DNA from: an uncultured bacterium
GTDB taxonomy: Bacteria > Bipolaricaulota > Bipolaricaulia > UBA7950 > UBA9294
NCBI GenBank assembly: GCA_903859225.1
Contig: CAIOLV010000001.1
Location: 1 to 31,568 of the forward strand
DNA length: 31,568 bases
Direction of reading: 5' to 3'
The stretch's first letter is position 1, and each line of letters opens with the position of its first letter. Positions 5,851 through 31,152 of this stretch are shown piece after piece. The notes below the pieces were generated by a model. The model had not been told where the DNA came from and searched no databases. It saw nothing but the letters and a program-made list of their open reading frames with translations. The position numbers and the translations under genes were made by a program.

Positions 5851-6593
5851 TCGGAAAGAGGACGCGGTTGGCGCGGTTGTTCCGCGCCGATGGGCGGGCC
5901 GTCGTGATTGCGCTCGATCACGGGCAGTTCAAGGGCTCCATGCCTGGGCTCGAGTCCGTGCCCGACATCGTGAAGCGCGTGGTCGACGGAGGGGCGGACG
6001 GAATCATCCTCAATGCGGGAGCGCTGGAAGGCTCTGTCTGCAACTACGCGGGACGCTGCTCGCTGATCGTTCGCGTCACGGGGGCGAGCACAGACGCCAA
6101 TCCCGGTTTCGACTATCACCGATCGATCCTGTCGGTCGAGCGGGCCGTCGCGCTGGGCGCGGACGCGGTCATCGCCATGGGCTTCCTCGGCAGCCCGAGC
6201 GAGGGGCCGTCGTTGGCCCTCCTGGCGGAGATTGCAGAGGACTGCCGGCGATGGGGAATGCCGCTGGTGGCCGAGATGCTGATCGCCGATCCGAAGAAGT
6301 TCAACGATGTCCCGTCGATCGCTCTGGGAGCCCGCGTGGCCTACGAGCTCGGCGCTGATGTCGTGAAAGCGTACGGCGCCGGCGAACCGTCGTTCGCCGA
6401 CATTCCGAAGAGCGGCCCGCTTCCCGTCCTCGTCGCGGGGGGCGCAAAGTCGGCGGACCCGGCGGAGATGGCGCGCCAAGCCGTCGAGTGCGGAGCGGCC
6501 GGCGTGGCATTCGGACGCACGGTGTTTGGGGCGGCGAACCCCACGGAGATCGTTCGCAGTCTCGTGAAGGCTGTGCATGGAAAGGGAGGCTAG
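5847..6593 (+). CDS. Class I aldolase (DhnA/LsrF/DeoC-LacD family)
   Basis: IALDHG, GADGII, Schiff-base Lys in GADVVKAY, VAGG, GVAFGR; GTGA overlap with the lacI stop; SD AAGGAGGGG; 248 aa. Confidence 0.88.
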   Translation: MIGKRTRLARLFRADGRAVVIALDHGQFKGSMPGLESVPDIVKRVVDGGADGIILNAGALEGSVCNYAGRCSLIVRVTGASTDANPGFDYHRSILSVERAVALGADAVIAMGFLGSPSEGPSLALLAEIAEDCRRWGMPLVAEMLIADPKKFNDVPSIALGARVAYELGADVVKAYGAGEPSFADIPKSGPLPVLVAGGAKSADPAEMARQAVECGAAGVAFGRTVFGAANPTEIVRSLVKAVHGKGG

Positions 6594-14938: not shown

Positions 14939-14952
14939 GGGCGGGAGGCTCG

Positions 14953-15966
14953 ATGGCGCGGATGACGAGTGCAGAGCAGGCGTGGGCCGCAGCGCGGGTG
15001 ACCGAACTGGTCGCCTCGCTGTTGCGCGATGCGCCCGTGCTCGACATCACATCGCACCGCGGCCCGAGCGGCGCCGCGATCGTCGACTGCGGGGTCGACG
15101 TCCGCGGTTCATGGGAGGCGGGGCGCCGCATCGCCGTTGTGTCCCACGCCGGGATGATGAACGCGACGCTTGGGGTCTCCGACGTCGCTCGATTGTCGCT
15201 CCCCGAATTCGTCGGCGATTCGTGGCGCCCGTACTTGTCGACGTACGGGCTGCAGGTGTCCTTCGCGCTCTCCGAGGTCGATCCCGCGATCCGTATCTCG
15301 GGCCCGGTGCGTGCGGCGATCGACGACGGGCTCAGGACAACGTCCTCCGCGGTCGAGGGCGCCGCTTCTCGCGACACCAATCCCTGGGGTGTTGCGGTGG
15401 TCGAGTCCGACCGCCTGCCGGACGAGGCGGTCGTTGCGGCGATCGGTCGCCGGGCGGGCCTGCGGCCGGACGAGCTCACGCTTCTCGTGGTCCCATCGAG
15501 GAGCCTTGCCGGCGTGACGCAGATCGCTGGACGGCTGAACGAGTGTGTCCTCTTCACGCTCGACCAGTCGCTCGGACTGGATCCGAAGTCCGTCCTGGGA
15601 ATCCTCGGCGCAGTCCCGATCGCTCCGTGCGGCGCCGGCGCGTTCGCCACCCAGGATGACATGATTCACTACGCCGGGCGGGTGACGATGGTGGTCGATG
15701 CCCCCGCGAGCTGGAGTCTCCAGGTCGTGGCAGACGGGCTCGTCTTTCGCTCGTCGTCTGCCTACGGCCGGCTCTTCTCCGAACTCCTGGCCGAAGCAGG
15801 CGGCGTCTTTGAAGCGATTCCGGGACTCAACGATCTGAACAAGGTTGCGCAGATCGCCGTCGTCGACCGACGCACCGCGAAGATGGCGACGGCAGGCGCC
15901 GTCGATGGGGCGATCCTCGCCTCCGCCGCGAAGCGGGCCGGAAGGGGACGCGATGAACTCCCGTGA
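14953..15966 (+). CDS. mch: Methenyl-tetrahydromethanopterin cyclohydrolase homologue (divergent)
   Basis: IVDCGVDVRGSWEAG, SGPVRA, ESDRLPD, P..L.LLV.P..S..G..QI.GR..E, G.VPIAP, DDMIHYAG, S.S.YGR.F; SD GGGAGG; 337 aa. Confidence 0.85.
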   Translation: MARMTSAEQAWAAARVTELVASLLRDAPVLDITSHRGPSGAAIVDCGVDVRGSWEAGRRIAVVSHAGMMNATLGVSDVARLSLPEFVGDSWRPYLSTYGLQVSFALSEVDPAIRISGPVRAAIDDGLRTTSSAVEGAASRDTNPWGVAVVESDRLPDEAVVAAIGRRAGLRPDELTLLVVPSRSLAGVTQIAGRLNECVLFTLDQSLGLDPKSVLGILGAVPIAPCGAGAFATQDDMIHYAGRVTMVVDAPASWSLQVVADGLVFRSSSAYGRLFSELLAEAGGVFEAIPGLNDLNKVAQIAVVDRRTAKMATAGAVDGAILASAAKRAGRGRDELP

Positions 15967-17815
15967 GATCATCCCGCACAGGATCATCACCGTGGACCTT
16001 GCCAGCGGGTCGACGCGCGAGGAGACCTGTGGTACGAGCGACCTCCAGGCCTTCCTCTGCGGGCGCGGAGCCGCGGCGCACCTCCTGGCGCAGCGCTCGT
16101 TCTGGCGCCACGATCCGCTCGATCCGGCGTCGCCGTTCGTGATGGCGAGCGGCCTGCTCAACGGAACCCCGTGGCCGGCGTCGACGCGCGTCCATATGGC
16201 CTTTCGGTCTCCGCTGACCGGGATCTACGGCTATGCGAACTCCGGCGGATCGCTCGGGCCGCACCTCGCCGCGCACGGGATCCTCGCTCTCGAGTTGGTC
16301 GGACGCGCGGATCGCCCCACGACCGTCGAGGTGAGCGATGCCGGCATCCGACTCTGCGACGCCGAGGACCTCTGGGGAAGAGGCGTGTCTGAGACCACGT
16401 CCTCGCTCCGCGCGGGAAGGCCGTTGGCGGCCGTGGCGTGCATCGGCGTGGCCGGCGAGCGTCGCGTCCCGCTCTCCGCTGTGATGGTGGACGGCGAACG
16501 CGCCGCTGCGCGCTGCGGGGGAGGCGCGGCCCTCGGTGCGAAGAATGTGAAGGCCGTCGTGGTTCACGGAGGAGCCAGGGCGCGGTTTCCGGAGGCGTTC
16601 CTTGCGAGCTGCCGCGCGGCGACGGCGCGGATTCTGGCGACACCCGGCATCGCCGACCTGTCCCGCTGGGGCACTCCGCTCCTCGTCGCGATCAAGAATG
16701 AGCACGGCGACCTCCCCGCGATGAATCACCGCCGGGGCCAAGTCCCGTTCGCCGACCGAATCGACGCCGATGCCCTCGAGGCCTACCGCGTCGAGACGAA
16801 GGGCTGCCCCGGCTGCCCGATCCGCTGCGGTCGCGTCTCGGAGGTCCGATCGGGCGCCCATCGCTCTCGCAGTGCGGGGCCCGAGTACGAGACCGTGGAC
16901 GCCCTCGGTCCGGACTGCCTGTGCGGAGACGTCGAGGCGCTGCTTCATGCCAACGCCCTGTGCAACGAGCTCGGTCTCGACACCATCTCGGTCGGCGCGA
17001 CGATCGCGTTCGCCATGGAGTGCCACGAGAACGGCCTGCTGGACGACGGGGAGTTGGACCTTTCGTGGGGAAACGGAGACACGGTCGTCGCGCTCGTCGA
17101 GCGGATGGCCCGTCGAGAGGGTATCGGCGAATTGCTCTGCGGCGGGGTCCGAGCCGCGGCCCTCGAACTCGGACCGGCCGCCGCGCCCTACGCGCTCCAC
17201 GTGAAGGGGCTCGAGATCCCAGGACAGGAGCCGCGGGTGGCGAAGAGCTTCGGGTTGGGGCACGCCACGTCGAATCGGGGCGCCGATCATCTCTACGCGC
17301 TCCCGACCGTCGATGTCGCCGGACTGGACGGCGCGGCTCGGCGGCTGCTTCCCGACGTCTATCCGCGCGTGCTCGATCCGGACGACGAGACGTCGAAGGC
17401 GGCGCTCGTGCGGTTCGGGGAGGACTACTGCGCCGTCTCCGATGCCCTCGGCGTATGCAAATTCACGACGACGGAGATGTACGCGCTCGATCCGGAGCAT
17501 CTGGCCGACGCGCTCGGAGTGCTCGGGATGTCCTTCGACGCGGCGCACCTCCTCGAGGCGGGAGAGCGCATCGTCAACCTCGAGCGGCTCCTGAACGCGC
17601 ACCTCGGCGTCGAAGCGCACGACGACACGCTGCCGGCGCGGTTCACCGACGAGGCGCTGTGCGTCGAGCGCCAGGGTGGGGTGGACGCCCACCGGATTCA
17701 TTCACTCTCGTCAATGATCGAGGAGTACTACCGCCTGCGCGGCTGGGCGGCGGACGGGCTTCCGACAGCGCTGACACTGGAGCGGCTCCGCCTCGCCGAG
17801 TGGAGGCCATCGTGA
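15953..17815 (+). CDS. aor: Tungsten aldehyde:ferredoxin oxidoreductase family protein, copy 1
   Basis: RSPLTG, NSGG, CPGCPIRC, GPEYET, NELGLDTIS, RGADH, LGVCKF, YYRLRGW; 620 aa. Confidence 0.92.
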   Translation: MNSREIIPHRIITVDLASGSTREETCGTSDLQAFLCGRGAAAHLLAQRSFWRHDPLDPASPFVMASGLLNGTPWPASTRVHMAFRSPLTGIYGYANSGGSLGPHLAAHGILALELVGRADRPTTVEVSDAGIRLCDAEDLWGRGVSETTSSLRAGRPLAAVACIGVAGERRVPLSAVMVDGERAAARCGGGAALGAKNVKAVVVHGGARARFPEAFLASCRAATARILATPGIADLSRWGTPLLVAIKNEHGDLPAMNHRRGQVPFADRIDADALEAYRVETKGCPGCPIRCGRVSEVRSGAHRSRSAGPEYETVDALGPDCLCGDVEALLHANALCNELGLDTISVGATIAFAMECHENGLLDDGELDLSWGNGDTVVALVERMARREGIGELLCGGVRAAALELGPAAAPYALHVKGLEIPGQEPRVAKSFGLGHATSNRGADHLYALPTVDVAGLDGAARRLLPDVYPRVLDPDDETSKAALVRFGEDYCAVSDALGVCKFTTTEMYALDPEHLADALGVLGMSFDAAHLLEAGERIVNLERLLNAHLGVEAHDDTLPARFTDEALCVERQGGVDAHRIHSLSSMIEEYYRLRGWAADGLPTALTLERLRLAEWRPS

Positions 17816-19725
17816 CGGCATTCCACGGCGGCTACGTCGGTGTCGTGTTGGACGTCGACCTCACAAAGCGACGCGTCGCATCGCGGCCCCTCGATCCCGC
17901 TCTCGCGCGCCGCGTCCTCGGGGGAAGCGGGCTGGGAGCAGAGGTTCTCTGGGACGAGGTCGGGCCCGACGTGGATCCTCTGTCGCCGGAGGCCGTCCTC
18001 ATCGTGGCGACCGGACCGCTCACGGGCACGCCGTGGCCGTGCTCCGGCCGAACGGAGGCCGTCGCCCGTTCGCCGCTGACCGGCATCTACGGCGACTCGA
18101 ATGCAGGGGGAACGTTCGGTCCTGGGCTCAAGTCTGCGGGATTCGATGCGATCGTCGTCCGCGGCGGCTCGACGGACCCGGTGGTTCTGCGCATCGCCGA
18201 CGGGCGCGCGACGATCGACGACGCGGGCAGCGTCTGGGGTCTCGACACGGTCGAGACGGAGGCGGCATTGCGTGCTCGGTACGCTGCGCCTGCGCTGCAG
18301 GTGGCGTCGATCGGACCGGCCGGCGAGCGCGGCGTTCGCTTCGCGTCGATTCAGGCGACGCCCAATCGAAGCTTCGGCCGATGCGGACTCGGCGCGGTGA
18401 TGGGTGCGAAAGGTCTGAAGGCGATCGCGGTGTCCGGCTCGAGGCGCGTGCCGATCGCCGAGCCGGCGGCGTTCGCAGAGCTGGCGAAGACGATGCACGC
18501 CCGCATCCGAGCTAACGCGATGTTCCCGGCGTGCTCGCGTTACGGCACTCCCGGTCTCGTGCGGGTCGTGAACGAGATCGGTCGCTTCCCGACGCGCAAC
18601 TTCCAGGACGGCGAGTTTGCCGGAGCCGAGGCGATCAGCGGAGAAGCGCTGCGAGAACGGTTCTTCGTCGCGGACGCGGGATGCTTCGCCTGTCCGGTGC
18701 GTTGCGACAAGGTGTACCGCATCTCGAGCGGACGGTTTGCCGGCGTCGAGACGTCGAGCGTCGAGTACGAGACGCTCAATGCCTTCGGGGCGGGGCTCGG
18801 GAACGCGGATCTCGAACTCATCCTCTACGCGAACGAGCGCTGCGACCGCCTGGGGCTCGACACGATCTCTGCCGGCCGGGCGATCGGCTTCGCGATGGAA
18901 CTGGTCGAGCGCGGCGTCGTGTCGCGCGAGGATCTCGGAGGACTCAGCGGGATGTGGGGAGACGAAGCGACGATCGTCGGGCTCCTAGACTGCATCGCCG
19001 CTCGCGACGGGATCGGCGACGTGCTGGCCGACGGGGTCCGCCGAGCCGCCGTAGCTTTCGGTGCCGCGGCGGCGCCGTACGCGATGGAGGTCAAAGGGAT
19101 GGAGATCCCTGCGCAGGACGGACGCGCGCAGCAGTCGATGGGACTGGCGCACATCACCTCGAACCGCGGCGCGGATCACCTGAAGGCGTTTCCGACGATC
19201 GACGAGACCGGGAACCCTGATGAAGTCGCGCGGCGGTACGGGTCGCAGTACCTGCCGGAGATGGCCGATCCCCACGCGACGCGGCACAAGGCGCTGCTCG
19301 TGAAGGACGGCGAGGACTTTGGTGCGGTCGTCGACTCTGTTGGGGTCTGCAAATCCGGCGGGACGTTCGTCATGGCTGAGATCTACTGGACCGACATCGC
19401 GGCTGGCGTTTCCGCCGCCACCGGGTGGCGGCTCGAAGAGTCGGAGCTGCGGGTGATTGGAGAACGGATCGTCAACCTGACCCGTGCCTACAACGGCCGC
19501 CTCGGGGTGACGCGGGCCGACGATCGTCTTCCGGACCGTCTGACTCACGAGCCATCCCCGGCCCGCGGAGCGCGCGGCCACGTGGCGCACGCTGAGGAGC
19601 TGCTCGACGAGTACTACGGCCTGCGCGGCTGGGATGCTGCACGGGGATGGCCGACAGAAGAGACGCTCGACCGCCTCGGGCTCGGCGATGCGCGGCTCGC
19701 TCTCTGGGGGCAAGGCGATGGATAG
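17812..19725 (+). CDS. aor: Tungsten aldehyde:ferredoxin oxidoreductase family protein, copy 2
   Basis: LGGSGLG, RSPLTG, SNAGG, GRCGLGAVMGAKGLKAI, CFACPVRC, EYET, DRLGLDTIS, RGADH, VGVCK, YYGLRGWD; GTGA overlap; 637 aa. Confidence 0.93.
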   Translation: MTAFHGGYVGVVLDVDLTKRRVASRPLDPALARRVLGGSGLGAEVLWDEVGPDVDPLSPEAVLIVATGPLTGTPWPCSGRTEAVARSPLTGIYGDSNAGGTFGPGLKSAGFDAIVVRGGSTDPVVLRIADGRATIDDAGSVWGLDTVETEAALRARYAAPALQVASIGPAGERGVRFASIQATPNRSFGRCGLGAVMGAKGLKAIAVSGSRRVPIAEPAAFAELAKTMHARIRANAMFPACSRYGTPGLVRVVNEIGRFPTRNFQDGEFAGAEAISGEALRERFFVADAGCFACPVRCDKVYRISSGRFAGVETSSVEYETLNAFGAGLGNADLELILYANERCDRLGLDTISAGRAIGFAMELVERGVVSREDLGGLSGMWGDEATIVGLLDCIAARDGIGDVLADGVRRAAVAFGAAAAPYAMEVKGMEIPAQDGRAQQSMGLAHITSNRGADHLKAFPTIDETGNPDEVARRYGSQYLPEMADPHATRHKALLVKDGEDFGAVVDSVGVCKSGGTFVMAEIYWTDIAAGVSAATGWRLEESELRVIGERIVNLTRAYNGRLGVTRADDRLPDRLTHEPSPARGARGHVAHAEELLDEYYGLRGWDAARGWPTEETLDRLGLGDARLALWGQGDG

Positions 19726-21052
19726 GCGGATCGTGCTCGGGGCAGCGGTTCTCGCGGGCGCGGACGCGTCCCTGCGACTGGATTGCGGCGTGCTGATCGA
19801 AGGCGCGCGGATCGTCGCCGTGGGCCCGAACGCCCAGTTGACCGCTCACGCGGGCGATGCCGAGATCCTCGACGCGCGCGACCTCATTCTCTGCCCCGGA
19901 TGGGTGAACGCCCATCATCACGCTTACGGCCTTCTCGCCCACGGAATCCCGATCGCGGGCGACGCGCCTCGCGGGTTCGACCGCTTCCTTTCCGACCTCT
20001 GGTGGCCGCGCGTCGAGGATCGGCTTGACGGGAGCATGATCGAGGCGGCGATGGCGGTCTCGTGCGCCGACATGATTCGCTCGGGGTTCACGGCGTTTTG
20101 TGACGTCCTGGAGGCGCCGCTGGCCGGGACGGGCGTTCTCGACCTCGAAGCGCGCGCCGTCGAACGCGCCGGGTTGCGGGCCGCCCTCTGCCTTGAGGCA
20201 TCGGAGCGACATGGCGCCGAAGTTGGCCGGCAGGCGCTGTGGGAGAACGAGCGGTTCGCCCGGGAGCGTGGGCGCGACGGACTCGTTCGCGGGATGCAGT
20301 GCCTTCACACGAGCTTCACCTGCTCGGAGGGGTTTGTGCGCGCGGCGAAGGAGAGCGCGGCCCGCGCCGGCTGCGATCTGCATCTTCACCTCTCGGAAAG
20401 CGCCTACGAGCCAAAGGAGTGCCTGCGGCGTCACGGCGTGCGCCCGGTTCACTGGTACGACCAACTGGGGTTCTGGGACGAGACGGTGCTGGCTTCGCAG
20501 GTCGTGGCGGTGACCGACGACGAGATCGCGCGGCTCGCCGAGCGTCGCGTCCGCATCGCCCACATGCCGCTCTCGAACTGCGAAGTAGGAGGAGGCATCG
20601 CGCCCATCCCGCAGATGATCGAGCGCGGCCTCGAACCAGGACTCGGAACCGACGGGTACATCAACGATCCGTTCGAAGTGATGCGCGGCGCGTTCCTCCT
20701 CCACAAAGGGGCGGCGCGAGATGCGTCGGTGATGCCGGCGCGGACGGTGCTGGGCATGGCGACGGCGTGGGGCGCCCGGGCGATCGGGTTTCCCGAGGCG
20801 GGAGCCCTCGCGCCGGGGCACCCGGCCGACCTCATCGGAATCGACGACGCTCCGGGCACGCCGCTCACAGCAGACAACGTCGCGGACCAGCTCGTTCTCT
20901 TCCGCGGGCGCGGCGACGTCAAGCTGACGATCGTGGCCGGTCGAGTGCTCTTCCGTAACGGAGTGGTCGAGACGATGGACGAAGGAGCCGTCCGAGCGGC
21001 CGCGCGCCTCGAAGTGGCGCGACTCTGGGCGGGAAGGGGGCGCGGTGGTTGA
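19718..21052 (+). CDS. Amidohydrolase (SsnA / guanine-, MTA- or pterin-deaminase-like)
   Basis: PGWVNAHHH, HLHLSE, GLGTDG, G.L.PG.PADL; 444 aa. Confidence 0.88.
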   Translation: MDRRIVLGAAVLAGADASLRLDCGVLIEGARIVAVGPNAQLTAHAGDAEILDARDLILCPGWVNAHHHAYGLLAHGIPIAGDAPRGFDRFLSDLWWPRVEDRLDGSMIEAAMAVSCADMIRSGFTAFCDVLEAPLAGTGVLDLEARAVERAGLRAALCLEASERHGAEVGRQALWENERFARERGRDGLVRGMQCLHTSFTCSEGFVRAAKESAARAGCDLHLHLSESAYEPKECLRRHGVRPVHWYDQLGFWDETVLASQVVAVTDDEIARLAERRVRIAHMPLSNCEVGGGIAPIPQMIERGLEPGLGTDGYINDPFEVMRGAFLLHKGAARDASVMPARTVLGMATAWGARAIGFPEAGALAPGHPADLIGIDDAPGTPLTADNVADQLVLFRGRGDVKLTIVAGRVLFRNGVVETMDEGAVRAAARLEVARLWAGRGRGG

Positions 21053-22100
21053 TCTGCGAGTCGACCTTGCCGGCCTCACGCTCGTGAATCCGCTTGTGCT
21101 GGCGTCGGGCCCTCTGTCGTGGAACGGTGACGCGATCGTCCGCGCGCACTGCGCCGGAGCGGCGGCGATCGTGACGAAAACGATCCGCCGCGCTGCGGCG
21201 CGTTCGCCGCGGCCGCACATCGCCGCAACTCCTCACGGGGTTCTGAACACGGAGCGTTGGTCGGACCTCGAAGCGAGGCAGTGGATCGACCACGAGATCC
21301 CGCGAGCGAAGGACGGGGGCGCAACGGTGATCGCGAGCCTGGGACTCGCCGTGGACGACGTCGTGGCGCTGGCCGAAGAACTCGAGCGGGCAGGAGCCGA
21401 TGCCCTCGAGGTCGTGTCGTACGACGAGGCCGTCCTCCCGAGCATGGTGAGCGCAGCGGTCGAGCGAGTGCGGATCCCCGTGCTTGCGAAGCTTGGCGTC
21501 AACGGGTGCGATCTCGCAGGCACCGCGCGACGGTGCGCCGAATCCGGCGCGAGCGGCATCACGGCGATCGACTCCGTCGGCCCGACGTTGCGCGTCGACC
21601 TCGCGCGTCGCCGCCCCGTTCTCGGAGCAGATTCCGCATGGTGGTCCGGTCCGGCGATCCTGCCGATCGCGCTGCACGCCGTGCACGTCCTCCGCGGCGC
21701 CGTCGCCGTGCCCATCGTGGGGACGGGGGGCGTGGCGGATGCAGACGCGGCGATCGAGATGCTGTTCGCCGGGGCCAGCGCCGTCGGGCTGTGCAGCGCT
21801 CCTCTCGTTGAGGGCCTCGGCGTCTTTTCGCGGATGCGCGAGCGGATGGCACAGCGTTTGGACGAGCTCGGCATCGCGTCCGCCCATGATGCGATCGGCG
21901 CGATGGAACGAGAGACTGCCGCGGGGTTCGCAATGGCGTTGGACGATGCGGCGTGCACGCACTGTGGCGCCTGCGTTCGGGTCTGTCCATACGCTGCGCG
22001 GCGAGGTCCTGGCGTCGTCGAAGCCGCGTGCCGCGGCTGCGGGTTGTGCGTCTCCATCTGCCCGGCAGGCGCGCTGGCGTGGGAAAGGGGTGAACGATGA
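21045..22100 (+). CDS. Dihydroorotate/dihydropyrimidine dehydrogenase (PreA)-like FMN barrel with C-terminal 2x[4Fe-4S]
   Basis: NPLVLASGP, VTKT, SGPAILP, IVGTGGV, AGASAVG; CTHCGACVRVCP and CRGCGLCVSICP; 351 aa. Confidence 0.85.
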   Translation: MVDLRVDLAGLTLVNPLVLASGPLSWNGDAIVRAHCAGAAAIVTKTIRRAAARSPRPHIAATPHGVLNTERWSDLEARQWIDHEIPRAKDGGATVIASLGLAVDDVVALAEELERAGADALEVVSYDEAVLPSMVSAAVERVRIPVLAKLGVNGCDLAGTARRCAESGASGITAIDSVGPTLRVDLARRRPVLGADSAWWSGPAILPIALHAVHVLRGAVAVPIVGTGGVADADAAIEMLFAGASAVGLCSAPLVEGLGVFSRMRERMAQRLDELGIASAHDAIGAMERETAAGFAMALDDAACTHCGACVRVCPYAARRGPGVVEAACRGCGLCVSICPAGALAWERGER

Positions 22101-23425
22101 TCCTTGTGCGGGGAGCCTCGTACGTCGTGCGCGATGCCGATCGCGTCGAGCGGGATGTGGACGTTCTCATCGACGGAGATCGCATAGTCAAGGTGGGCCA
22201 CGTCGACATCCGCCGCCTCGCGCCGGACACGGAGATCCTCGAAGGCCGCGGCCGCGCGCTGGTACCGGGGTTCGTCAATGCGCATACCCACCTGTATCAG
22301 TCCATGCTCAAGGGGCGGCGCGACGATCTCTCGCTCGTCGACTGGTGCGAGCAGGTCACGTTCCCGTTCGTTCGCCGTGTGCTCGACGATGCGTGGCACC
22401 ATGGGCGCGTCGAGGTCGGACGCCTTTGGTCGTCCCTAGCGGCCATCGAGATGATCCGCAGCGGGATCACGACGTTCGTCGACATGGACATGGACCTCGA
22501 CGGCGTGATCTCGGCGTGGGTCGAGATCGGCATCCGCGGTGTCGCGGCGATGGAACTCGTCGATCGTTGGGTGCCGCAGGACCTGATGCTGTCGCTCGAG
22601 AGGACCAAGGACGACGCACGGCGTCTGATCGAGACGTGGCACCGGGTTCCGAGAGAGAGCCCGCTCGTGACCGTGTTCCTCGGCCCGTCGGCGCCGTTCA
22701 CGTCGAGCGACGACCTCTTGCGGTTCATCCGTGACGAGGCCGATGCGCACGATCTCGGGATCCAGACGCACGTGTCGGAGACGGCGTGGGAGGTCGACGA
22801 GTCGGTGCGGCGGACCGGCAAGACGCCGCTCGCTTACCTCGAGTCGATCGGCTTCCTCACGAGTCCGATCACGGCCGCGCACTGCGTCCACCTGACCGAG
22901 GGTGAGATCGAGCTTGCGGCGCGGCGCGACGTCGCCGTGATCTACAACCCGAAGAGCAACATGAAGCTTGGGAGCGGCATCGCGCCGATCGTCGCCCTGC
23001 AACGAGCCGGAGCGACGATCGCGCTCGGCACGGACGGCGCGGCGTCGAACGACCTCCTCGACCCGTTCGAGGAAATGCGCGCTGCGGTGCTCTTGCAGAA
23101 GGTGGCGGCGGGCGATCCGACGGCGCTTGGGGCGCGGGACGCCTTCCGCTTCGCCACCGAAGGCGGGGCGCGCGCGTGCCGGATCGACGCAGGCACGATC
23201 GATGAGGGGCGGCTCGCCGACCTTGTCCTCATCGACCTCGGCGAAGCACACCTCTTCCGCCTGACGGACGAGATCGTGCCGGCGCTCGTGTACTGCGCGC
23301 GGGCGGACGACGTCGAATCCGTCGTCGTCAACGGGCGGCTGGTGATGAAGGAGAGACGGATGTTGACGGTGGACGAGCGGGCTGTGTTGGCCGAAGCGAA
23401 GAGAGTGGGTGAACGATATGCGTGA
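22097..23425 (+). CDS. Amidohydrolase (MtaD/TrzA-type nucleoside or base deaminase)
   Basis: PGFVNAHTH, PSAPFT, HVSET, AHCVH, NPKSNMKLGSG, LGTDGAASND, G..ADL; ATGA overlap; 442 aa. Confidence 0.9.
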   Translation: MILVRGASYVVRDADRVERDVDVLIDGDRIVKVGHVDIRRLAPDTEILEGRGRALVPGFVNAHTHLYQSMLKGRRDDLSLVDWCEQVTFPFVRRVLDDAWHHGRVEVGRLWSSLAAIEMIRSGITTFVDMDMDLDGVISAWVEIGIRGVAAMELVDRWVPQDLMLSLERTKDDARRLIETWHRVPRESPLVTVFLGPSAPFTSSDDLLRFIRDEADAHDLGIQTHVSETAWEVDESVRRTGKTPLAYLESIGFLTSPITAAHCVHLTEGEIELAARRDVAVIYNPKSNMKLGSGIAPIVALQRAGATIALGTDGAASNDLLDPFEEMRAAVLLQKVAAGDPTALGARDAFRFATEGGARACRIDAGTIDEGRLADLVLIDLGEAHLFRLTDEIVPALVYCARADDVESVVVNGRLVMKERRMLTVDERAVLAEAKRVGERYA

Positions 23426-24827
23426 AGACCTGACCGGGGCGATGGCGCGGATCGTCGGAGAGGCGAACGTCTCCGACCGGCTCGTCGATCGGATCTGCTA
23501 CTCGCGGGACTGCGGGCCGGACCCGGCGGGCATTCCCGCCGTCGTGGCGCGACCGTCGACGACCGAGGAAGTGGCCGCCGTGCTCCGCTGGGCGGACGAG
23601 CACCGCCACGCGCTGTACACGCGCGGCCGGGCCACGACGTTTCTCGGCAGCGGTGTGAAGGAAGGCGTGATCTTGCTCGATACGACGCGGATGAATCGGA
23701 TCGAGCGGATCGATACGGCGGCCGGCTATGTCGACGTCCAGGCGGGTGCCATCTGGCATGGGATCGACGCCGACCTTCGTCGTGTCGGGTGGGAACTCGG
23801 CGTTCCCGGAGGCGGCGGGCTGTTCTCGTGCACCATCGGCGGCACGGTAGCCGTGAACGCGATCCCGCACGGCGCGACCGAGTACGGGATGACGGGCGAC
23901 CATGTCCTCGCGCTGGAGGTCGTCCTCGCGAACGGCACCGTCATTCGCACGGGTTCCTGGGCCAATCCTGCGTCGGAGCCGATTGAGCGCAACGCCAACG
24001 GCCCTGACTTCGCCGGCCTCTTCATCGGCTCGTACGGGATCCTCGGCGTGATCACGCGGGTCGTCTACCGGATTCGCCGCGCGCCCGAGTCCGAACTCTT
24101 CCGGTTCTACGCGTTTGACGACTACCGCGACCTCGTGGCCGCGGCGGGCGGGATCCAGGGACGCGGCGCGGCGACGTTCCTCGTCGGTCTGTTCGGCGGG
24201 CCGAAGCCCGCGGGAGAAGAGGGAGATGCATTCTTTCACGTGATCGTTCGCGATCGCTCCGCGGTGGCTGAGGGTCGCATGCATGAAGCGGAGGCGATCG
24301 CCGAGTCCCACGGCGGACGTCCGCGTCCGGCCGAAGGGACGCGCCACTACTGGCAGGAGCACATGTACTCGTGGCTCCGTAATACGGGACCGAGCGCGTA
24401 CTACAGCGATCGACCGTTCTTCTGCCCCGAGGTAGCGGGGTTCGTCTCGACGCCCGGACTGGCGGACGCCGTCGCCCTCTTCCGGACGATGAGAGCCGAG
24501 CGAGAGGCCGAGTTCGAGCAATACGGGATCCGCGTCAAGGGAGTTGACGCCTACTTCGCGCGCAACGGCGCGTACCTGTGGATCGACACGCTCTACGACG
24601 AGCGGCGATAGGACGCCTGGGAGTACGGAATGCGGCTGCGGGGCGAGATCGCGGAACGGATGTTCACGGAAGGCAGGATGAGCCCCGGAGGTCTCGGCGC
24701 CGGGATCTCTCCGCACATCATGCCGAAGCTCGGAACGGCCTACGACCTACTGCGCTCGACGAAGCGCATGCTCGATCCGAACGGAATTCTGAATCCCGGA
24801 CTGCTGGTCGAGGAGGGTGCGCAATGA
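23418..24827 (+). pseudogene. GlcD-like FAD-binding oxidoreductase interrupted by one in-frame TAG (24609-24611)
   Basis: YSRD, AVVARP.T.EEV, CTIGGTVAVNA, LEVVLANG, LFIGSYGILGVIT; after the TAG the same frame continues 71 codons to the family C-terminus KRMLDPNGILNPG and an ATGA overlap with the next gene. Confidence 0.7.
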
Positions 24828-25963
24828 AGCTCGCCGAGTACAAGAACCAGATCTACAGCTGTCTCCGCTGCGGCTTCTGCTTCGACCATGAGGTCGGGAG
24901 CCAGGCGAAGATCTGCCCGTCGCACGTGACGTACGGGATGGAATCCTTCGGGGCACGCGGCAAGCTCGCCATCGCGCGGGCGCTGGTCGATGAGGCGATC
25001 GAGTACGACAGCGACGTTGCACAGCGCGTCTACGCTTGCACCGAGTGTGGCGCCTGCGAAGAGCAGTGCTTCAAGTACCTCGACCTCCTCGGCATCTACC
25101 GTGCGATGAAGGGCGAACTCGCCGAGCGAGACCTCGTGCCGACGGCGCTTGCTGACGTCGCGCGCGCCGCAGAGCGGGAGGGAAACCCCTACGGCCAGGC
25201 GGCGGGGAAGCGCCTCGACTGGGCGCCGGGAAGGGAACGTGTGGGCAAGAAGGCGGAGACCGTCTTCTTCGCCGGATGCACACCGTCCTACCTGCGACGC
25301 GGGATCGCCCGCGGCGCGTACCAGCTCCTCGAGGCGGGCGACGTCGACTTCGGCCTGCTCGCAGAGGAAGTCTGCTGTGGGCATCCGTCCTACGTTGCCG
25401 GGGACCTCGCCGGCGCACGCGCCGCCGTGGCGAGGAATGTGGAAGCGATCGAGCGGTCGGGTGCGACGCGCGTTGTCTTCGCCTGCCCGGGATGCCTCGC
25501 GACCTTCCGCGACGAAGCGCCGGAACTCCTCGGCCGGCCGCTTCCGTTCGAGGCTGTGCACGTGACGGAACTGCTCACCGAGCGGCTGGCTGCGGGATGG
25601 CGCTTGCGCAAGCAATCGCGGGTGGTGACGTACCACGACCCGTGCAACCTCGGGCGAGGCCTCGGGATCTACGACGCCCCGCGGCGTGTCATCGACGCGG
25701 TCCCCGGCGTGCGGCGAACGGAGATGCGCCGGACGATGGCGAGGTCGTTCTGCTGCGGCAACGGGGGATTCGTCCGCTTCGGCTACGAGCCCATGGCGAT
25801 CGAGAACGAAGCGACGCGGCTCGAGGAGGCTGTGGCAACGGGGGCCGACCTCCTCTTGTCGGCCTGTCCGGCGTGCCAGATCGCGTTCCTCGACGCGAAG
25901 AGGCGCGCGAAGGCGGCGATTGAGGTCCTCGACATCGTGGAGTGGCTGGCGACGGCACTGTAG
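24824..25963 (+). CDS. GlcF/HdrD-like Fe-S oxidoreductase (2x[4Fe-4S] plus CCG domains)
   Basis: CLRCGFC..CP, CTECGACEEQC, EVCCG, YHDPCNLGR, FCCG, SACPAC; 379 aa. Confidence 0.9.
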   Translation: MKLAEYKNQIYSCLRCGFCFDHEVGSQAKICPSHVTYGMESFGARGKLAIARALVDEAIEYDSDVAQRVYACTECGACEEQCFKYLDLLGIYRAMKGELAERDLVPTALADVARAAEREGNPYGQAAGKRLDWAPGRERVGKKAETVFFAGCTPSYLRRGIARGAYQLLEAGDVDFGLLAEEVCCGHPSYVAGDLAGARAAVARNVEAIERSGATRVVFACPGCLATFRDEAPELLGRPLPFEAVHVTELLTERLAAGWRLRKQSRVVTYHDPCNLGRGLGIYDAPRRVIDAVPGVRRTEMRRTMARSFCCGNGGFVRFGYEPMAIENEATRLEEAVATGADLLLSACPACQIAFLDAKRRAKAAIEVLDIVEWLATAL

Positions 25964-25975
25964 GACGGAGGCGAG

Positions 25976-27328
25976 ATGGCGACGAGCGAAGCATGGGCCG
26001 CGGAGCTTGCGGCACGGTGGCGGGTCGAGACGGCGTCGGGTGTGATCGTCTATCCCACGTCGGCGGCCGTCGGGGCGATGGAAAACCTCGGCGTCGACAT
26101 GAGGGAGGCCGCGCCCCTGCTTCGTGACGCCGAGGACGCCTTCGCCCGGCGTGACTGGAGCCGCCTCGCGACGGCGCTCGCTCGTGTGAACGGCGTCATT
26201 GCCGCTCGATTGCCGTCCGTGCGGGAGGGCGAGCCGGAGACGTGGGACGAGTACCGCGCGACCGTGCCGGGCGGGGCGCCGGGGCGGGCGCGCTCCGGCG
26301 TGTCGAGCGGAGCGTCGACGGCGGCGCGTTCGGGCATGCCCGTCGACTACGATGATCGCGTGCGCGGAGCCTGGATCGGCAAGTGCATTGGTACTGCGCT
26401 CGGCGATCCGGTCGAGGGCTGGACGAGGGAACGGATCGCCGCCGAGCACGCGCCGATCTCCGGCTACCTCGTGCCGCCGAAGGTCGAGAACGACGACACG
26501 GCGTACCCCATCCTCGTGTTGCACGCGCTGGACGAGCACGGCACAGGGTTCACGAGCGCCGACCTCGCTCTCGAGTGGGTCGCTCATCTTCCGCTCGCGT
26601 TCACCGCGGAGTGGTCGGCGATCGAGAACGTGAAGGCCGGCGTCCTGCCGCCGGACAGCCGATGGGTAAGGAACCCTTGCGGCGCATGGGTCGGCGGGCA
26701 GATGCGAACTGAGATCCATGGGCTGCTCGCGCCGCTCGATCCCGAGCGCGCCGCGGAGTGGGCCTTCCGCGACGCGGTCATCTCGCACTACCGCGAAGGC
26801 ATGGACGGTGCCATCTTCACCGCCGCCGTCACGAGCCTCGCGTTCTCCGGGGAACCGACGGAGACTCTCATCCGCGCGGCCCTTCGCTACGTCCGTCCTG
26901 GAGGCGCGTTCGCGGCAACCGTCGAGCGGACGCTCGACGCCTGCAAACGCCACGGAGACTGGCGTCGGGTCCTGGACGAACTGCGCCCCGATCTCGATCG
27001 CTTCCATTGGATCCACACGCTGCCGAACATCGCCTGTGCCGTAACGGGGCTTGTTCTCGGAGAGCGGGACTTCGAGCGCTCGATCCTGACGACGCTGCAA
27101 TGTGGGTACGACACCGACTGCTCGGCCGGGCAGACGGCGGCGCTGCTTGGTTGCCTGCTCGGTGCGCGCGGGATTCCCGACAAGTGGAGTCGTCCGATTG
27201 GTCAACGACTCACATCGTACGTCGTAGGTTTCGAGGAGATCGAGTTCGAGAAGCTCATCGCGTGGACGACGGGGTGGGGATCGATTCTGGCAGGAGAGCG
27301 CAGTTCGTGGAAGGGGGACGTCGCATGA
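25976..27328 (+). CDS. ADP-ribosylglycohydrolase family protein
   Basis: RVRGAWIGKCIGTALGDPVEG, NDDT, FTAE, GQMR, DA.ISH, HTLPN, GYDTDC..Q.A...G; ~120-aa N-terminal extension; SD GGAGG; 450 aa. Confidence 0.85.
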   Translation: MATSEAWAAELAARWRVETASGVIVYPTSAAVGAMENLGVDMREAAPLLRDAEDAFARRDWSRLATALARVNGVIAARLPSVREGEPETWDEYRATVPGGAPGRARSGVSSGASTAARSGMPVDYDDRVRGAWIGKCIGTALGDPVEGWTRERIAAEHAPISGYLVPPKVENDDTAYPILVLHALDEHGTGFTSADLALEWVAHLPLAFTAEWSAIENVKAGVLPPDSRWVRNPCGAWVGGQMRTEIHGLLAPLDPERAAEWAFRDAVISHYREGMDGAIFTAAVTSLAFSGEPTETLIRAALRYVRPGGAFAATVERTLDACKRHGDWRRVLDELRPDLDRFHWIHTLPNIACAVTGLVLGERDFERSILTTLQCGYDTDCSAGQTAALLGCLLGARGIPDKWSRPIGQRLTSYVVGFEEIEFEKLIAWTTGWGSILAGERSSWKGDVA

Positions 27329-28311
27329 TTGTCGTGCTCGGGAGCGCCAACATGGATGTCGTCACCGAGGTCGCGCGGATGCCGCGCCCGGGCGAGACCG
27401 TTCCCGGGAAGGCGCTGCGCTACTACCCCGGCGGCAAAGGAGCGAACCAGGCGGTCGCTGCCGCGCGCCTCGGCGGCCCAGTCTCGTTCTGCGGAGAGGT
27501 CGGTCGAGACGCGTTTGGCGAGCGACTCCTCGACGCGATGCGAGCCGACGGCGTCGACGTGAGTGGGGTCGAGATCGCAGCGGACGCGGCGACCGGCACG
27601 GCGTCGATCTGGGTCGAAGACGGCGGCGAGAACGCGATTGCGTGCGTTCCCGGCGCGAACGGCGCCGTCGATCGAGCGTACGTAGACCGCATCCTCGCGC
27701 GCATCGCCGCGGCGGACGTGCTTCTCTTGCAGCTCGAGATCCCGCTCGACACGGTGGCGTACCTCTTGAGGCGGCTGCCCGGTGGGCGGCCGCTCGTGAT
27801 CCTGGATCCCGCGCCGGCGCGCGAGTTGTCGGGCCTTCCGCTTGACCGCATCGACGTGCTGACGCCGAACGAGACGGAACTCCGAGCGATCACGGGGATT
27901 GCGGATCCGGCGCTCGCCGCGCGCAGCCTTCTCGAACGCGGGGTCCGCGCCGTCGTGTGCAAGGCGGGCGAACGCGGCGCGATCTGGTTCGGCGTCTCGG
28001 CAACGCGCGTGCCGGCATTCCGAGTCCGCGTCGTCGACACGACGGCGGCCGGCGATGCGTTCAACGGGGCGCTGGCCGTCGCGCTGACGGATCGTCCACT
28101 CCACGATGCGGTTCGTTTTGCCAACGCGGCAGGCGCTCTGGCCACGACGAAACGCGGTGCGCAGCCTTCGCTGCCGCGTCGTGCCGAGGTCGAGGAACTG
28201 CTCGCTGCGTCTGTCGCTGCTCAGGGGACGGCGGAGCTCGCGACGAAGCGGCCCCAGCCTGGGCCGGTGGGAAACTCCCCGTCCGCGAAGACACAACGCC
28301 CGCGGACGTAG
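27325..28311 (+). CDS. rbsK: Ribokinase (PfkB family)
   Basis: GSANMD, PGGKGANQAVAAARLG, PNETE, DTTAAGDAFNG, GAQPSLP; ATGA overlap; ~30-aa C-terminal tail overlaps the convergent gene. Confidence 0.9.
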   Translation: MIVVLGSANMDVVTEVARMPRPGETVPGKALRYYPGGKGANQAVAAARLGGPVSFCGEVGRDAFGERLLDAMRADGVDVSGVEIAADAATGTASIWVEDGGENAIACVPGANGAVDRAYVDRILARIAAADVLLLQLEIPLDTVAYLLRRLPGGRPLVILDPAPARELSGLPLDRIDVLTPNETELRAITGIADPALAARSLLERGVRAVVCKAGERGAIWFGVSATRVPAFRVRVVDTTAAGDAFNGALAVALTDRPLHDAVRFANAAGALATTKRGAQPSLPRRAEVEELLAASVAAQGTAELATKRPQPGPVGNSPSAKTQRPRT

Positions 28312-29600
28312 GTGCGGACCACGGCGCCGCGGACCGCAAGCCCTTCGAACGGCGAGAAGTCCGTCGCCATGTGGAGGTTGGCCGCGGAGAGAGTCCACGC
28401 CTTCTTGGGGTCGAAGAGAATGAGGTCAGCGTCCGCTCCGACGCCAAGCGAGCCCTTCCGCGGCGCGAGGTCGAAGATGCGCGCGGGATTCCCGGACACG
28501 ACGCGCGCGAGCCACTCCAGCGAGAGCCCACGGGCGGCGACGCCTTCCGAGTGCATAAGAGGAAGGAGCGTCTCGACCCCCGGGAGGCCGCAGGGGATCT
28601 CGAGGACGTTGGTCGGGCGCGCCTTGTCGGCGCGGAGGAACGGGCAGTGGTCCGTCGCGACCGTGTCGAGCGTTCCGTCGCTGAGTGCCGACCACAGGGC
28701 GACTCGGTCCTCGGACGTCCGGATCGGCGGAATGACGCTCCACTGCCGCCCATCCTCTCGAGCGTAGACCCGCTGGTCGAGCAGGAGGTAGTGCGGGCAC
28801 GTCTCGGCGGTGACGCGGACGCCGCGTGCTTTCGCCCGCGCGATCACGGCGGCCGCCTCCGCGGTGCTCACGTGGGCGATGTGCAGGCGCACGTTCGCGG
28901 CCTCGGCGAGAGCACACATCCGCTCGACGGCGATCGCCTCGCTCTGTGATGGGCGGCTGCGCGGGAACGACGTCATGCGGCTCCGCTCCGGCTCCGGGAT
29001 CGCGGCGGACGCAGCGGCGATCGCGTCGGGATCCTCGGCGTGCACCATGGCCACACCCCCGACGGCGGAGATGGCGCGGAAGGCGTCAGCGAGTTCCGCA
29101 GGGGTCGAGCGCTCAGCGTACACCGTGTAGAACTTGAAGCTTGTGACGCCCGCGCGGACCGCGTCAGCGATCTCACCCTCGCGATCGGGCCGCCACCCGA
29201 CGACCTCGGCGTGAAGCCCGACATCGACGAGGCTCTGTCGTGCGGTCTCAGCCCTTGCCTGCACCTGCTCGGCGAGCGTCGTCCTGTCCCCAGCGATCGT
29301 GAAGTCGAGGATCGTCGTCACACCGCCGCCGGCGGCGGCGCGGGTTCCGGACTCGAACGTGTCGCGCGTCGTCATCCCGAAGGCCGGGGCCTCCATGTGG
29401 GTATGGCCATCGATCGCGCCGGGAAAGACCAACAGGTTCAGAGCATCTACGCGTTCGGCGCCGTCCAGCCGGGCGCCCAAACGAGCGATGCGCCCGCCGT
29501 CGATTCCGACGTCCGCCTTGACCCACTCGCCGTGGGTCCAGACGCGCCCGCCGGCGATCACTGCCTCATGGTGTCTCTGCCTTCGTCCCATCCCGAGCAT
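28221..29600 (-). CDS. Dihydropyrimidinase / hydantoinase / allantoinase-like cyclic amidohydrolase
   Basis: PGAIDGHTH, AAAGGGVTTILDF, carbamylated-Lys site TSFKFY, VHAED, HVST, ETCPHY, PPIR, ATDHCP, GLPGVET, GADAD; start at 29600 or 29591. Confidence 0.9.
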   Translation of the reverse strand: MLGMGRRQRHHEAVIAGGRVWTHGEWVKADVGIDGGRIARLGARLDGAERVDALNLLVFPGAIDGHTHMEAPAFGMTTRDTFESGTRAAAGGGVTTILDFTIAGDRTTLAEQVQARAETARQSLVDVGLHAEVVGWRPDREGEIADAVRAGVTSFKFYTVYAERSTPAELADAFRAISAVGGVAMVHAEDPDAIAAASAAIPEPERSRMTSFPRSRPSQSEAIAVERMCALAEAANVRLHIAHVSTAEAAAVIARAKARGVRVTAETCPHYLLLDQRVYAREDGRQWSVIPPIRTSEDRVALWSALSDGTLDTVATDHCPFLRADKARPTNVLEIPCGLPGVETLLPLMHSEGVAARGLSLEWLARVVSGNPARIFDLAPRKGSLGVGADADLILFDPKKAWTLSAANLHMATDFSPFEGLAVRGAVVRTYVRGRCVFADGEFPTGPGWGRFVASSAVP

Positions 29601-29787: not shown

Positions 29788-31152
29788 ATGCGAAGGCTCA
29801 GATGGGCGCTGACGGGGGTTGGCTTCTTGGCTGCGGTGTTGGCACTTGGCGGATGCGACCAGCTCTGGCCCCTAGAGGCCAGGATCGCCATCCTGAACTC
29901 GGCGACAGGATACGCTCCGCTCGCCGTGGAGTTCTACGATGCATCGGTCGGGCCGGTCTCCTCGCGCGTCTGGGAGTTCGGCGATCCGGGCAGCGGGACA
30001 AGCAATACGTCGACGTTGCCGTCACCGACGCACACGTACCGCGAGAACGGAATCTACTCCGCGACGCTCATTGTGTACGCTGGCGATGGCCAGTCGAGCC
30101 GCACCACCATTGCGATCACGGTGGCAAACCCCGCGCCGGTCCCGCAGTTTGAGGCAACACCCGATCACGGTCCGGCGCCGCTTGCGGTGACCTTCGACCT
30201 GTCGACTTCGTTCGATCCGGCGGCTATCGTTCCGACGCCGACGGGGGGAGCGATCGTTTCCTACAGCCTTGACTTCGGTGATGGCACCCAGCCGGCCACC
30301 GGCACAAGCATCGGAACATCCATCCACCACACGTATGCGATTCCCGGTTATCGCGTTGCCACGCTCACCGTCGTGGACAACGACGGAGCGAGCGCGAGCG
30401 CGACGCATGTCGTGACCGTCGAGGGTGTCGCGGCAACGCTCGCGGCGCCAGGCGGCGACCCGATTGGCCTCACGTATGACGACGCCTCCCTCTGGGTCAG
30501 CGACTCGACGGCGAAGCGCATCTACAAGATCCGCCCGAGTGACGGCCAAGTCCTCGCATCCTTCGATGCGCCCGGCGGGTCCGTCGTCATCGGCGCGAAG
30601 ACAGATGCCAAGGCCATCATCCCTGGGCCGACAGCCGGCACGCCGGCAGGCATCGCCTGGAATGGAGGCGCGCTCTGGGTGGCCTGCCTGTCCGACGGGA
30701 AGATCTACGAAGTGAACCCGAGCGTCCCGACGACCGATCCGGGTCACATTCTCGCCGTGCTTGAGAGCGCTGCATTCACGCCTTTCGCCCTTGCTTTCGG
30801 CGGCGGCGCGCTGTGGGTGAGCGACATCGGGGCGGGACGGATCTTCAAGGTCGACCCGCTGACCGGCAGCGTCCTCGGATCGATCCAGGCGCCTGGGCTG
30901 GCCCCGACAGGGCTCGAGCCGAGGAACATCGTCCCCGTGGCCCCGACGGGACTTGCGTGGGCGAGCGGCTCGCTCTGGGTGTCGGCTGGGATCATGCTGT
31001 ACCGGGTCGACCCTGCGACGGGTGCGATCCTGGCATCGGTTCCTGCTCCCGGTCCCACACCAGCGGGCCTTGCCTTCGACGGTCTCTACCTCTGGGTTGC
31101 CGATCCGAACGGCACGAACCCTGGGCGCATCGACCGAATCGTCGTGCCGTAG
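29788..31152 (+). CDS. Lipoprotein with two PKD domains and a C-terminal five-repeat beta-propeller
   Basis: Lipobox LGGC; PKD motifs WEFGD...PTHTY..NG.Y and LDFGDG...HHTY..PG; five PxG[LI]A[WFY]xGxxLWV repeats; SD GAGGAGG; 454 aa. Confidence 0.8.
   Translation: MRRLRWALTGVGFLAAVLALGGCDQLWPLEARIAILNSATGYAPLAVEFYDASVGPVSSRVWEFGDPGSGTSNTSTLPSPTHTYRENGIYSATLIVYAGDGQSSRTTIAITVANPAPVPQFEATPDHGPAPLAVTFDLSTSFDPAAIVPTPTGGAIVSYSLDFGDGTQPATGTSIGTSIHHTYAIPGYRVATLTVVDNDGASASATHVVTVEGVAATLAAPGGDPIGLTYDDASLWVSDSTAKRIYKIRPSDGQVLASFDAPGGSVVIGAKTDAKAIIPGPTAGTPAGIAWNGGALWVACLSDGKIYEVNPSVPTTDPGHILAVLESAAFTPFALAFGGGALWVSDIGAGRIFKVDPLTGSVLGSIQAPGLAPTGLEPRNIVPVAPTGLAWASGSLWVSAGIMLYRVDPATGAILASVPAPGPTPAGLAFDGLYLWVADPNGTNPGRIDRIVVP

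Follow-up and report, generated by a model that had tools for sequence, protein, structure and literature searches.

A tungsten-type aldehyde oxidoreductase-bearing gene module of Bipolaricaulota, a probable variant of reductive purine ring degradation

We analyzed a stretch of 31,568 nucleotides (hereafter the window; contig CAIOLV010000001.1, positions 1 to 31,568, of assembly GCA_903859225.1) from a 1.07-Mb metagenome-assembled genome (MAG) of Candidatus Bipolaricaulota (Acetothermia), which is 68% complete. Judged from the genes and their neighbours, the region at 19718-29600 is probably the ring-degrading and ribose-releasing half of an operon devoted to an imported N-heterocycle that carries ribose; a purine-type nucleoside is the likeliest candidate. 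Together with two preceding genes of the tungsten-type aldehyde:ferredoxin oxidoreductase (AOR) family it includes a module that we take, on balance, to be an AOR-bearing variant of the reductive uric acid/2,8-dioxopurine pathway, lying outside the canonical cluster. The initial annotation had proposed anaerobic degradation of a purine or modified-nucleoside ring without a xanthine dehydrogenase (XDH). All the genes that it listed at 19718-29600 were found again by Pfam and NCBIfam scans of the open reading frames (ORFs), by which the window genes were assigned; a GlcD-like/CCG pair, described below, was missing from that list.

In the published pathway of gut bacteria, XdhD forms isoxanthine, whose reduction by YgfK or the PF01180-type UacX requires coupling to SsnA; HyuA opens hydantoin, and YgeW/YqeA, YgeY and YgeX finish the process (doi 10.1101/2025.05.19.654654; 10.1101/2025.04.24.650524). 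Not until 2025 was the anaerobic breakdown of the purine ring worked out, and then only in gut bacteria that depend on Mo/Se. The present module suggests a ferredoxin/tungsten-wired version in widespread uncultured anaerobes of sediment and subsurface, which would bear on the turnover of nucleic acids and nitrogen in anoxic sediments.

A gene core shared between phyla

The mobile core, found in Bipolaricaulota and Chloroflexota, consists of AOR1-AOR2-AH1-PreAl, usually with a hydantoinase (Hyd). AH1 (19718-21052, on the plus strand, like all features below unless stated) is a putative SsnA-like ring amidohydrolase with an Amidohydro_1 domain, and its ATG at 19718 overlaps the AOR2 stop codon. 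PreAl (21045-22100), a PreA-like FMN protein presumed to be a ferredoxin-dependent ring reductase, joins a PF01180 (DHO_dh) domain to a C-terminal 2x[4Fe-4S] (Fer4) part. With PreAl as query, 70 loci across phyla were collected from species-representative genomes and mapped by tblastn. Sixty-nine of the 70 were usable for counts, where 'near' means within 8 kb; among the loci in which the neighbours counted below were not seen, many are short contigs. Neighbour genes in mid-GC loci were placed from tblastn frames. Related genomes being non-independent samples, weight is placed on repeated position-exact replacements and not on the counts.

An AH1 orthologue (at least 40% identity) directly adjoins PreAl in 51 of the 69 loci. 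Most Chloroflexota loci carry the order AOR1-Hyd-AOR2-AH1-PreAl, and in the Bipolaricaulota genus g10 the order Hyd-AOR1-AOR2-AH1-PreAl is followed by carbamate kinase, two successive OTC genes and an XDH-like Mo subunit. Loci of Halanaerobiales and Cloacimonadota read YgeY-AH1-PreAl, then XDH (Mo, FAD and 2Fe-2S subunits), YgeY and OTC, with YgeY above its NCBIfam cut-off. Similarly, in Spirochaetota and Moorella the AH1-PreAl pair has as neighbours OTC-like genes and XDH Mo subunits accompanied by FAD and 2Fe-2S partners. The earlier assignment of the AH1/PreA-like/hydantoinase set to a purine-type ring module is supported by these neighbours, namely XDH, YgeY, carbamoyltransferases, carbamate kinase and PnrA proteins. 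Carbamate kinase or OTC-like genes were near PreAl in 11/69 loci. In the genome studied here, OTC-like genes and a carbamate kinase with 49% identity to YqeA are located on contigs C143 and C147, outside the window; the carbamoyltransferase and carbamate kinase pair expected for processing of ureido groups is thus present at the level of the genome and not of the window.

The module resembles the reductive uric acid/2,8-dioxopurine cluster in that a pterin-cofactor redox enzyme adjoins an inseparable pair of presumed Fe-S flavoprotein reductase and cog0402-type amidohydrolase. It also resembles it in the HyuA-type hydantoinase and in the carbamoyltransferase and carbamate kinase, which are in the genome here and beside the core in sister genera. 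By its domains the presumed reductase is of the PF01180 ferredoxin type, as is UacX of C. difficile. Unlike the published cluster, the module has AOR-family enzymes in the XdhD slot, an AH1 that falls under the SsnA cut-offs and carries Gln at the beta-6 position, and a PreAl without the Cys loop. Ftr-like, Mch-like, ADP-ribosylglycohydrolase (ARH), ribokinase and GlcD/CCG genes are added, no YgeX or YgeY gene is present in the operon, and the organism keeps a separate canonical-type YgfK-SsnA set as well.

AOR2 and an XDH-family trio in the same slot

AOR1 (15845-17815) and its paralogue AOR2 (17845-19725; 41-42% identity) possess all the features of AOR-family members: the PF02730 and PF01314 domains, the CxxCxxxC motif for a [4Fe-4S] cluster, the Glu of EYET, the His of RGADH and the pterin-binding DxxGxD/C motifs. 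They share this two-domain architecture and these motifs with P. furiosus AOR (1AOR) and with the other members of the family (FOR, GAPOR, WOR5, BamB). Unlike the known enzymes, they belong to two dedicated clades seen only with the AH1-PreAl module. A quick maximum-likelihood tree (IQ-TREE with SH-aLRT support) gave separate support to the two clades, each split into Bipolaricaulota and Chloroflexota and both distinct from the other AOR paralogues of the genome. AOR1-clade genes (38-44% identity) also adjoin AH1-PreAl in Spirochaetota and in one Asgard locus, and 23 of the 30 phylum genomes having either AOR2 or a PreAl orthologue have both.

A second difference from the known AOR family is that AOR2 is positionally interchangeable with an XDH-family trio. 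The Chloroflexota locus L084 reads AOR1-Hyd-[XDH FAD-2Fe2S-Mo]-AH1-PreAl, with the trio exactly in the AOR2 slot, whereas its seven sister loci read AOR1-Hyd-AOR2-AH1-PreAl with identical spacing and strand. Among the 69 loci, AOR2 was near PreAl in 33, an XDH-family Mo subunit in 20 and both in only 2 (AOR1 was near PreAl in 31). The scanned ORFs of the window contained no XDH-family domain, that is, no XDH-family Mo hydroxylase or dehydroxylase (XdhD or DOPDH) such as the canonical cluster has. The proposal that an AOR replaces XDH thus draws comparative support from L084 set against its seven sisters and from the near-exclusivity of AOR2 and XDH.

We tentatively suggest, as a possibility held at somewhat below even chances, that AOR2 (possibly also AOR1) acts as a ferredoxin-linked tungsten purine-carbon (de)hydroxylase replacing the Mo/Se XDH-type enzyme non-orthologously, with Mch/Ftr serving as an alternative to hydantoinase in the opening of the imidazole-derived ring where there is no methanopterin. 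If true, this would be a new reaction class and the first N-heterocycle substrate for the AOR family, and Mch/Ftr homologues would gain a function outside C1 metabolism. No AOR-family enzyme acting on N-heterocycles was reported in the literature searched, nor did that search return a paper linking tungsten or AOR with dioxopurine or SsnA. For Chloroflexota, a 2025 preprint mentions, in its survey of SsnA neighbourhoods, an F420-type reductase only.

The main rival, which we judge rather unlikely, retains the purine-type pathway. It makes the AORs ordinary aldehyde or N-formyl oxidoreductases acting on ring-opening intermediates, for example an imine-derived aldehyde at C6 or a formyl group from the Mch-like enzyme, with no ring (de)hydroxylation; the displacing XDH trio would likewise be a Mo aldehyde oxidoreductase. 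The published reductive pathway has no aldehyde intermediate. Yet AOR1 is nearest to true aldehyde oxidoreductases (1AOR is its best solved-structure match, with 356 bits), and both AORs keep the catalytic Glu and His, although both also have a Gln at a conserved active-site position. Aldehyde oxidoreductases of the XDH family are among the NCBIfam matches, and since the XDH family includes such enzymes, the AOR2/XDH swap could mean a shared aldehyde substrate and not ring hydroxylation. AOR1 moreover co-occurs with XDH (loci L073, L078 and L084, including Spirochaetota), and in Chloroflexota an aldo/keto reductase gene stands between the Ftr-like gene and AOR1 (L085:1673-2671, L087:3569-4615, L112:3031-4092). 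These points have to be set against the two dedicated AOR clades, conserved in two phyla solely with the module.

The hydantoinase and the Ftr/Mch-like pair

Hyd (28221-29600, minus strand) is a hydantoinase/dihydropyrimidinase of HyuA-like type. It reached 389.4 bits with TIGR02033, 4 bits under the cut-off of 393.25, and shares 36% identity with E. coli HyuA, whose metal and carboxy-Lys motifs line up with its own. It was initially described as a dihydropyrimidinase-like gene at the operon end. The gene is intact, but since it lies on the minus strand and is convergent with the ribokinase gene, it is not the last gene of the ribokinase transcript. The two 3′ ends overlap by 91 nt (28221-28311), and by ~81 nt in a same-genus relative (L042).

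Linkage of Hyd to the module, on which the proposed purine-type role had been made to depend, is kept across loci: among 17 Bipolaricaulota loci, 11 have Hyd linked to the module, with three different gene orders, and 9 loci of Chloroflexota have it as well. Overall, Hyd was near PreAl in 23/69 loci, often inside the operon.

A second slot swap concerns the Ftr-like and Mch-like pair (14024-15966). In G042, a genome of another Bipolaricaulota genus, the operon is complete and Hyd takes the slot of this pair. No PF02289 or PF01913 gene was found anywhere in G042 (93% complete) or in G007 (95%). Action of Mch/Ftr on the imidazole, or second, ring, as proposed before, receives comparative support from this swap. 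The two slot swaps together give directly testable predictions.

The same genes invite another explanation, put forward alongside the purine hypothesis in the initial annotation: the operon would serve to take apart a pterin-type coenzyme, for instance methanopterin salvaged from dead methanogens. The Ftr-like and Mch-like proteins would bind the C1-loaded pterin and unload it, ARH would cut the alpha-ribosyl link and a secreted phosphoesterase the phosphodiester; GlcD/CCG would oxidise hydroxyglutarate, the amidohydrolase AH2 would be a pterin deaminase, and AOR, PreAl, AH1 and Hyd would degrade the pteridine ring. This fits the presence of Ftr-like and Mch-like genes in the operon, and ARH, ribokinase, phosphoesterase, Zn-ADH and GlcD/CCG could each match one part of methanopterin. 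The cog0402 group includes pterin and isoxanthopterin deaminases, so that membership of AH2 in it is compatible with such an activity; the binding protein of the operon is of sugar type, which also suits this scheme. We nevertheless find it improbable, and weaker than the scheme with plain aldehyde or formyl AORs. G042 and G007 keep the whole operon with no Ftr or Mch gene, and the ring core is widespread in settings that have purine-pathway genes and PnrA-type nucleoside-binding proteins as neighbours but no Ftr, Mch, ARH or transporter. In addition, two carbamoyltransferases and a carbamate kinase by the core match a substrate that yields two ureido groups, such as a purine.

Mch homologues were also seen in loci of Clostridia and Lachnospiraceae MAGs, where they adjoin PreA-like, amidohydrolase, XdhD-like and hydantoinase genes. 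Their scores with TIGR03120 (cut-off 228.8) were 144 bits (L095:11166-12152), 242 bits (L095:18145-19143) and 217 bits (L111:3869-4885). Methanopterin would not be expected in these lineages.

The AH1-PreAl pair and the weight of contrary evidence

PreAl retains its FMN-binding elements and the 8 Cys for two [4Fe-4S] clusters. Like clostridial PydAc (PMC7332683) and E. coli PreA, it has an FMN (DHO_dh) domain fused to a [4Fe-4S] ferredoxin part without a FAD/NAD(P)H domain, and ferredoxin is therefore implied as its electron donor. By domain type, PF01180 plus 2x[4Fe-4S] beside an amidohydrolase, it may be likened to UacX. AH1 is 29% identical to E. coli SsnA and retains the HxH, HxxE and Asp motifs; its best families, PRK06038 and SsnA, were both under cut-off.

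Several observations count against the favoured assignment, in addition to the company of AOR1 with XDH and the shared aldehyde substrate considered above. The first group concerns the pair itself. The scores of AH1 with the SsnA models, 228.5 bits for TIGR03314 (cut-off 455.5) and 239.3 for NF005540 (444), are about half of the cut-offs, which leaves AH1 outside the SsnA family by these models. The beta-6 His is Gln in every AH1 beside PreAl, whereas it is kept in AH2, GuaD, another paralogue, all cog0402 deaminases compared and E. coli SsnA. The initial count of two deaminase-type amidohydrolases was right in number, but this Gln means that AH1 and AH2 are not equivalent. Aligned with 5KSW and 1EP1, PreAl is seen to lack the catalytic Cys loop of DHOD/DPD (N-x-S-C-P-N) and to have E-x-x-S-Y instead; E122, S125 and Y126, together with the 8 Cys, are invariant in 13 family members. 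A comparison of PreAl with E. coli YgfK gave no similarity of the FMN domain and is therefore uninformative. On these sequence features we tentatively place the AH1-PreAl pair as a sister of UacX/SsnA and not as a member of that family, because the Cys loop is missing, the beta-6 residue is Gln and AH1 reaches about half of the SsnA cut-offs.

The second group concerns the rest of the genome. Contig C7 (L120:5444-12461, minus strand) carries a second, canonical-type purine set made of YgfK, SsnA, a PLP enzyme, an XDH-type 2Fe-2S subunit, MocA and an XDH FAD subunit. YgfK shows 38% identity over 1027 residues; SsnA is a C-terminal fragment, 34% identical to E. coli SsnA, as the contig ends inside ssnA, and the XDH Mo subunit is not assembled. 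The module of the window may thus handle a different, though related, heterocycle from the C7 set, and nothing points to this more strongly than the canonical YgfK-SsnA set that the genome also carries. YgeX (2,3-diaminopropionate ammonia-lyase) gave no tblastn match at E<1e-6 in this assembly, 68% complete, and a PALP protein of C7 is 23% identical to YgeX. Finally, the binding protein of the operon is of the sugar (CUT1) type and not of the PnrA nucleoside type.

The words 'without a xanthine dehydrogenase' consequently hold for the window and the operon and not for the organism, which has XDH FAD and 2Fe-2S subunits, YgfK, SsnA and MocA on C7. PF02738 had no match anywhere in the assembly at its 68% completeness. 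A search of relatives for xdh genes likewise went against a general absence: each of the 5/5 cluster-bearing relatives has 2-5 PF02738 genes, which adjoin YgfK in several. In G118 (G118:C14, L134:4389-12447), where POR-gamma and ADP-forming acyl-CoA synthetase genes precede the operon, two XDH trios (Mo, FAD, 2Fe-2S) were observed directly upstream of these genes, at 6-17 kb from the operon; the window begins at a contig end at this place.

The pair could alternatively belong to a variant of the reductive pyrimidine (Pyd) pathway, with PreAl as a PydAc-like dihydropyrimidine dehydrogenase and Hyd as PydB. Such a scheme would account for the PF01180 plus ferredoxin domains and for the dihydropyrimidinase-type gene, and it has a precedent in clostridial PydAc, a ferredoxin-dependent uracil reductase (PMC7332683). 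PydAc has two ferredoxin domains, whereas PreAl has one (8 Cys), with the DPD/DHOD Cys loop deleted in favour of the invariant E-x-x-S-Y. The constant partner of PreAl is AH1, not a hydantoinase or dihydropyrimidinase as for PydAc and PreA, no beta-ureidopropionase is linked to the module, and in other loci it is XDH, YgeY, two OTC-like genes and carbamate kinase that stand nearby. We regard the Pyd route as very improbable, weaker still than the pterin route.

An AH1-PreAl pair was also observed in a cultured organism, Moorella naiadis AZ13.I (L105, NZ_JAXGFQ010000014.1), which makes it a possible laboratory model. There, AH1 (48% identity) is accompanied by a PreA-like domain fused to a PreT/GltD-like NAD(P)H module, and the pair is flanked by XDH Mo and FAD subunits (with a second Mo subunit upstream), an OTC-like gene, a GntR regulator and three PnrA-type nucleoside-binding proteins.

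A proposed order of steps

For the purine-type reading that we prefer, the following route can be drawn from homology and gene context. ARH would cut the ribosyl bond and ribokinase would phosphorylate the ribose, after which AH2 would take off the exocyclic amino group. AOR2 (perhaps AOR1) would then adjust the oxidation state of carbons in the ring with ferredoxin, the job of XdhD/DOPDH in the published pathway. PreAl would dearomatise the ring with reduced ferredoxin and AH1 would hydrolyse the six-membered ring, in a manner comparable to the coupling of YgfK/UacX and SsnA. Opening of the remaining five-membered ring may follow one of two branches: Hyd if its carbon is at the level of urea, or the Mch-like cyclohydrolase and the Ftr-like formyl-removing enzyme if it is at the level of formate. 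The ureido groups would finally be passed to the carbamoyltransferases and carbamate kinase (C143, C147), yielding ATP.

Other genes of the operon

The G+C content of the window is 66-70%, and the plus strand carries nearly all real genes. The operon covers ~24 kb, from a LacI-family regulator to ribokinase, and is conserved in Bipolaricaulota; its complete form is syntenic in 3 same-genus genomes and 2 other genera. Because most starts and stops overlap (ATGA type), the genes from AOR2 to ribokinase read as one transcription unit. Upstream and in the same direction are a LacI regulator, a DhnA-type aldolase, a large calcineurin-like metallophosphoesterase and the CUT1 sugar-type binding protein, for which a solved-structure search gave generic sugar-binding matches only. 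Further genes in this direction are a small sulfite-oxidase-fold protein, a Zn-ADH, two permeases and a DAGK-like kinase, followed by the Ftr-like, Mch-like, AOR1 and AOR2 genes.

AH2 (22097-23425) is a cog0402 deaminase in the neighbourhood of adenosine, 5′-methylthioadenosine (MTA) and 5′-deoxyadenosine deaminases, with NCBIfam scores of 323-348 bits, all under cut-offs. Its best solved relative is 4F0R, an MTA/S-adenosylhomocysteine deaminase. AH2 and its orthologues carry the full deaminase signature (NAHTHLY, HVSE, AAH and GTDG, corresponding to HxH, HxxE, beta-6 His and beta-8 Asp).

The GlcD-like FAD-binding dehydrogenase (PF01565; 23409-24827) has an in-frame TAG at 24609-24611, beyond which the frame runs for 72 codons to the C-terminal LDPNGILNPG of the family. 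Sixteen related loci that span the site have ordinary variable sense codons at this position (K, P, D, N, E, A and others). From this alignment we read the TAG as a nonsense mutation or assembly error unique to the MAG and not as recoding, since all relatives spanning the site have ordinary variable sense codons; interpretation as a pseudogene or as a recoded gene was set aside on the same ground. Its Fe-S partner (GlcF/TfrB/GlpC-like; 24824-25963) has a 4Fe-4S dicluster and two CCG domains, and overlaps the GlcD-like gene by ATGA.

The ARH-family protein (25976-27328; its true start may be later) is presumed to be a riboside hydrolase. It scored 164.7 bits with PF03747 (cut-off 26.2) and found only remote relatives in a solved-structure search. 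Its acidic motifs LGDPVEG, ENDDT and YDTD are there, which we take to be metal ligands by comparison with ARH3/DraG. The ribokinase gene (27325-28311; TIGR02152, 309.6 bits for a cut-off of 299.65) overlaps it by ATGA, and ARH-RbsK lies beside the ring module in three arrangements. ARH had been suggested as a possible stand-in for a nucleosidase, no nucleoside hydrolase or phosphorylase having been seen. None is present at the operon, but genes for an IU-nucleoside hydrolase and for two PNP-family proteins occur elsewhere in the genome (contigs C88, C14 and C146, all outside the window contig). Since these are present, ARH need not make up for the lack of a nucleosidase, and its more probable task is an uncommon ribosyl bond. 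Ribose utilisation systems of Bacteroides pair ribokinases with nucleoside hydrolases or ADP-ribosylglycohydrolases (doi 10.1101/574913). The present locus is similar in having an ARH-family gene beside ribokinase in a nutrient-scavenging context, and differs in phylum, in transporter type and in that ARH-ribokinase is welded to a ring-degradation module.

The aldolase gene at 5901-6593, labelled 'DeoC', is a DhnA-type class I aldolase with ADH synthase, LsrF-like thiolase and archaeal FBP aldolase as its best families. Identity as a deoxyribose-phosphate aldolase (DERA) was rejected in favour of this DhnA/ADH-synthase-like type. As the aldolase is not DERA, a role of the AORs limited to the oxidation of acetaldehyde from deoxyribose was given up.

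Beyond Hyd, a PKD-domain lipoprotein is encoded at 29788-31152. Its likeliest start is the ATG at 29788, which is followed by a lipoprotein-type signal (…LALGGC); a longer ORF, beginning at 29299, would run into the 5′ end of the hydantoinase gene, which diverges from the PKD gene.

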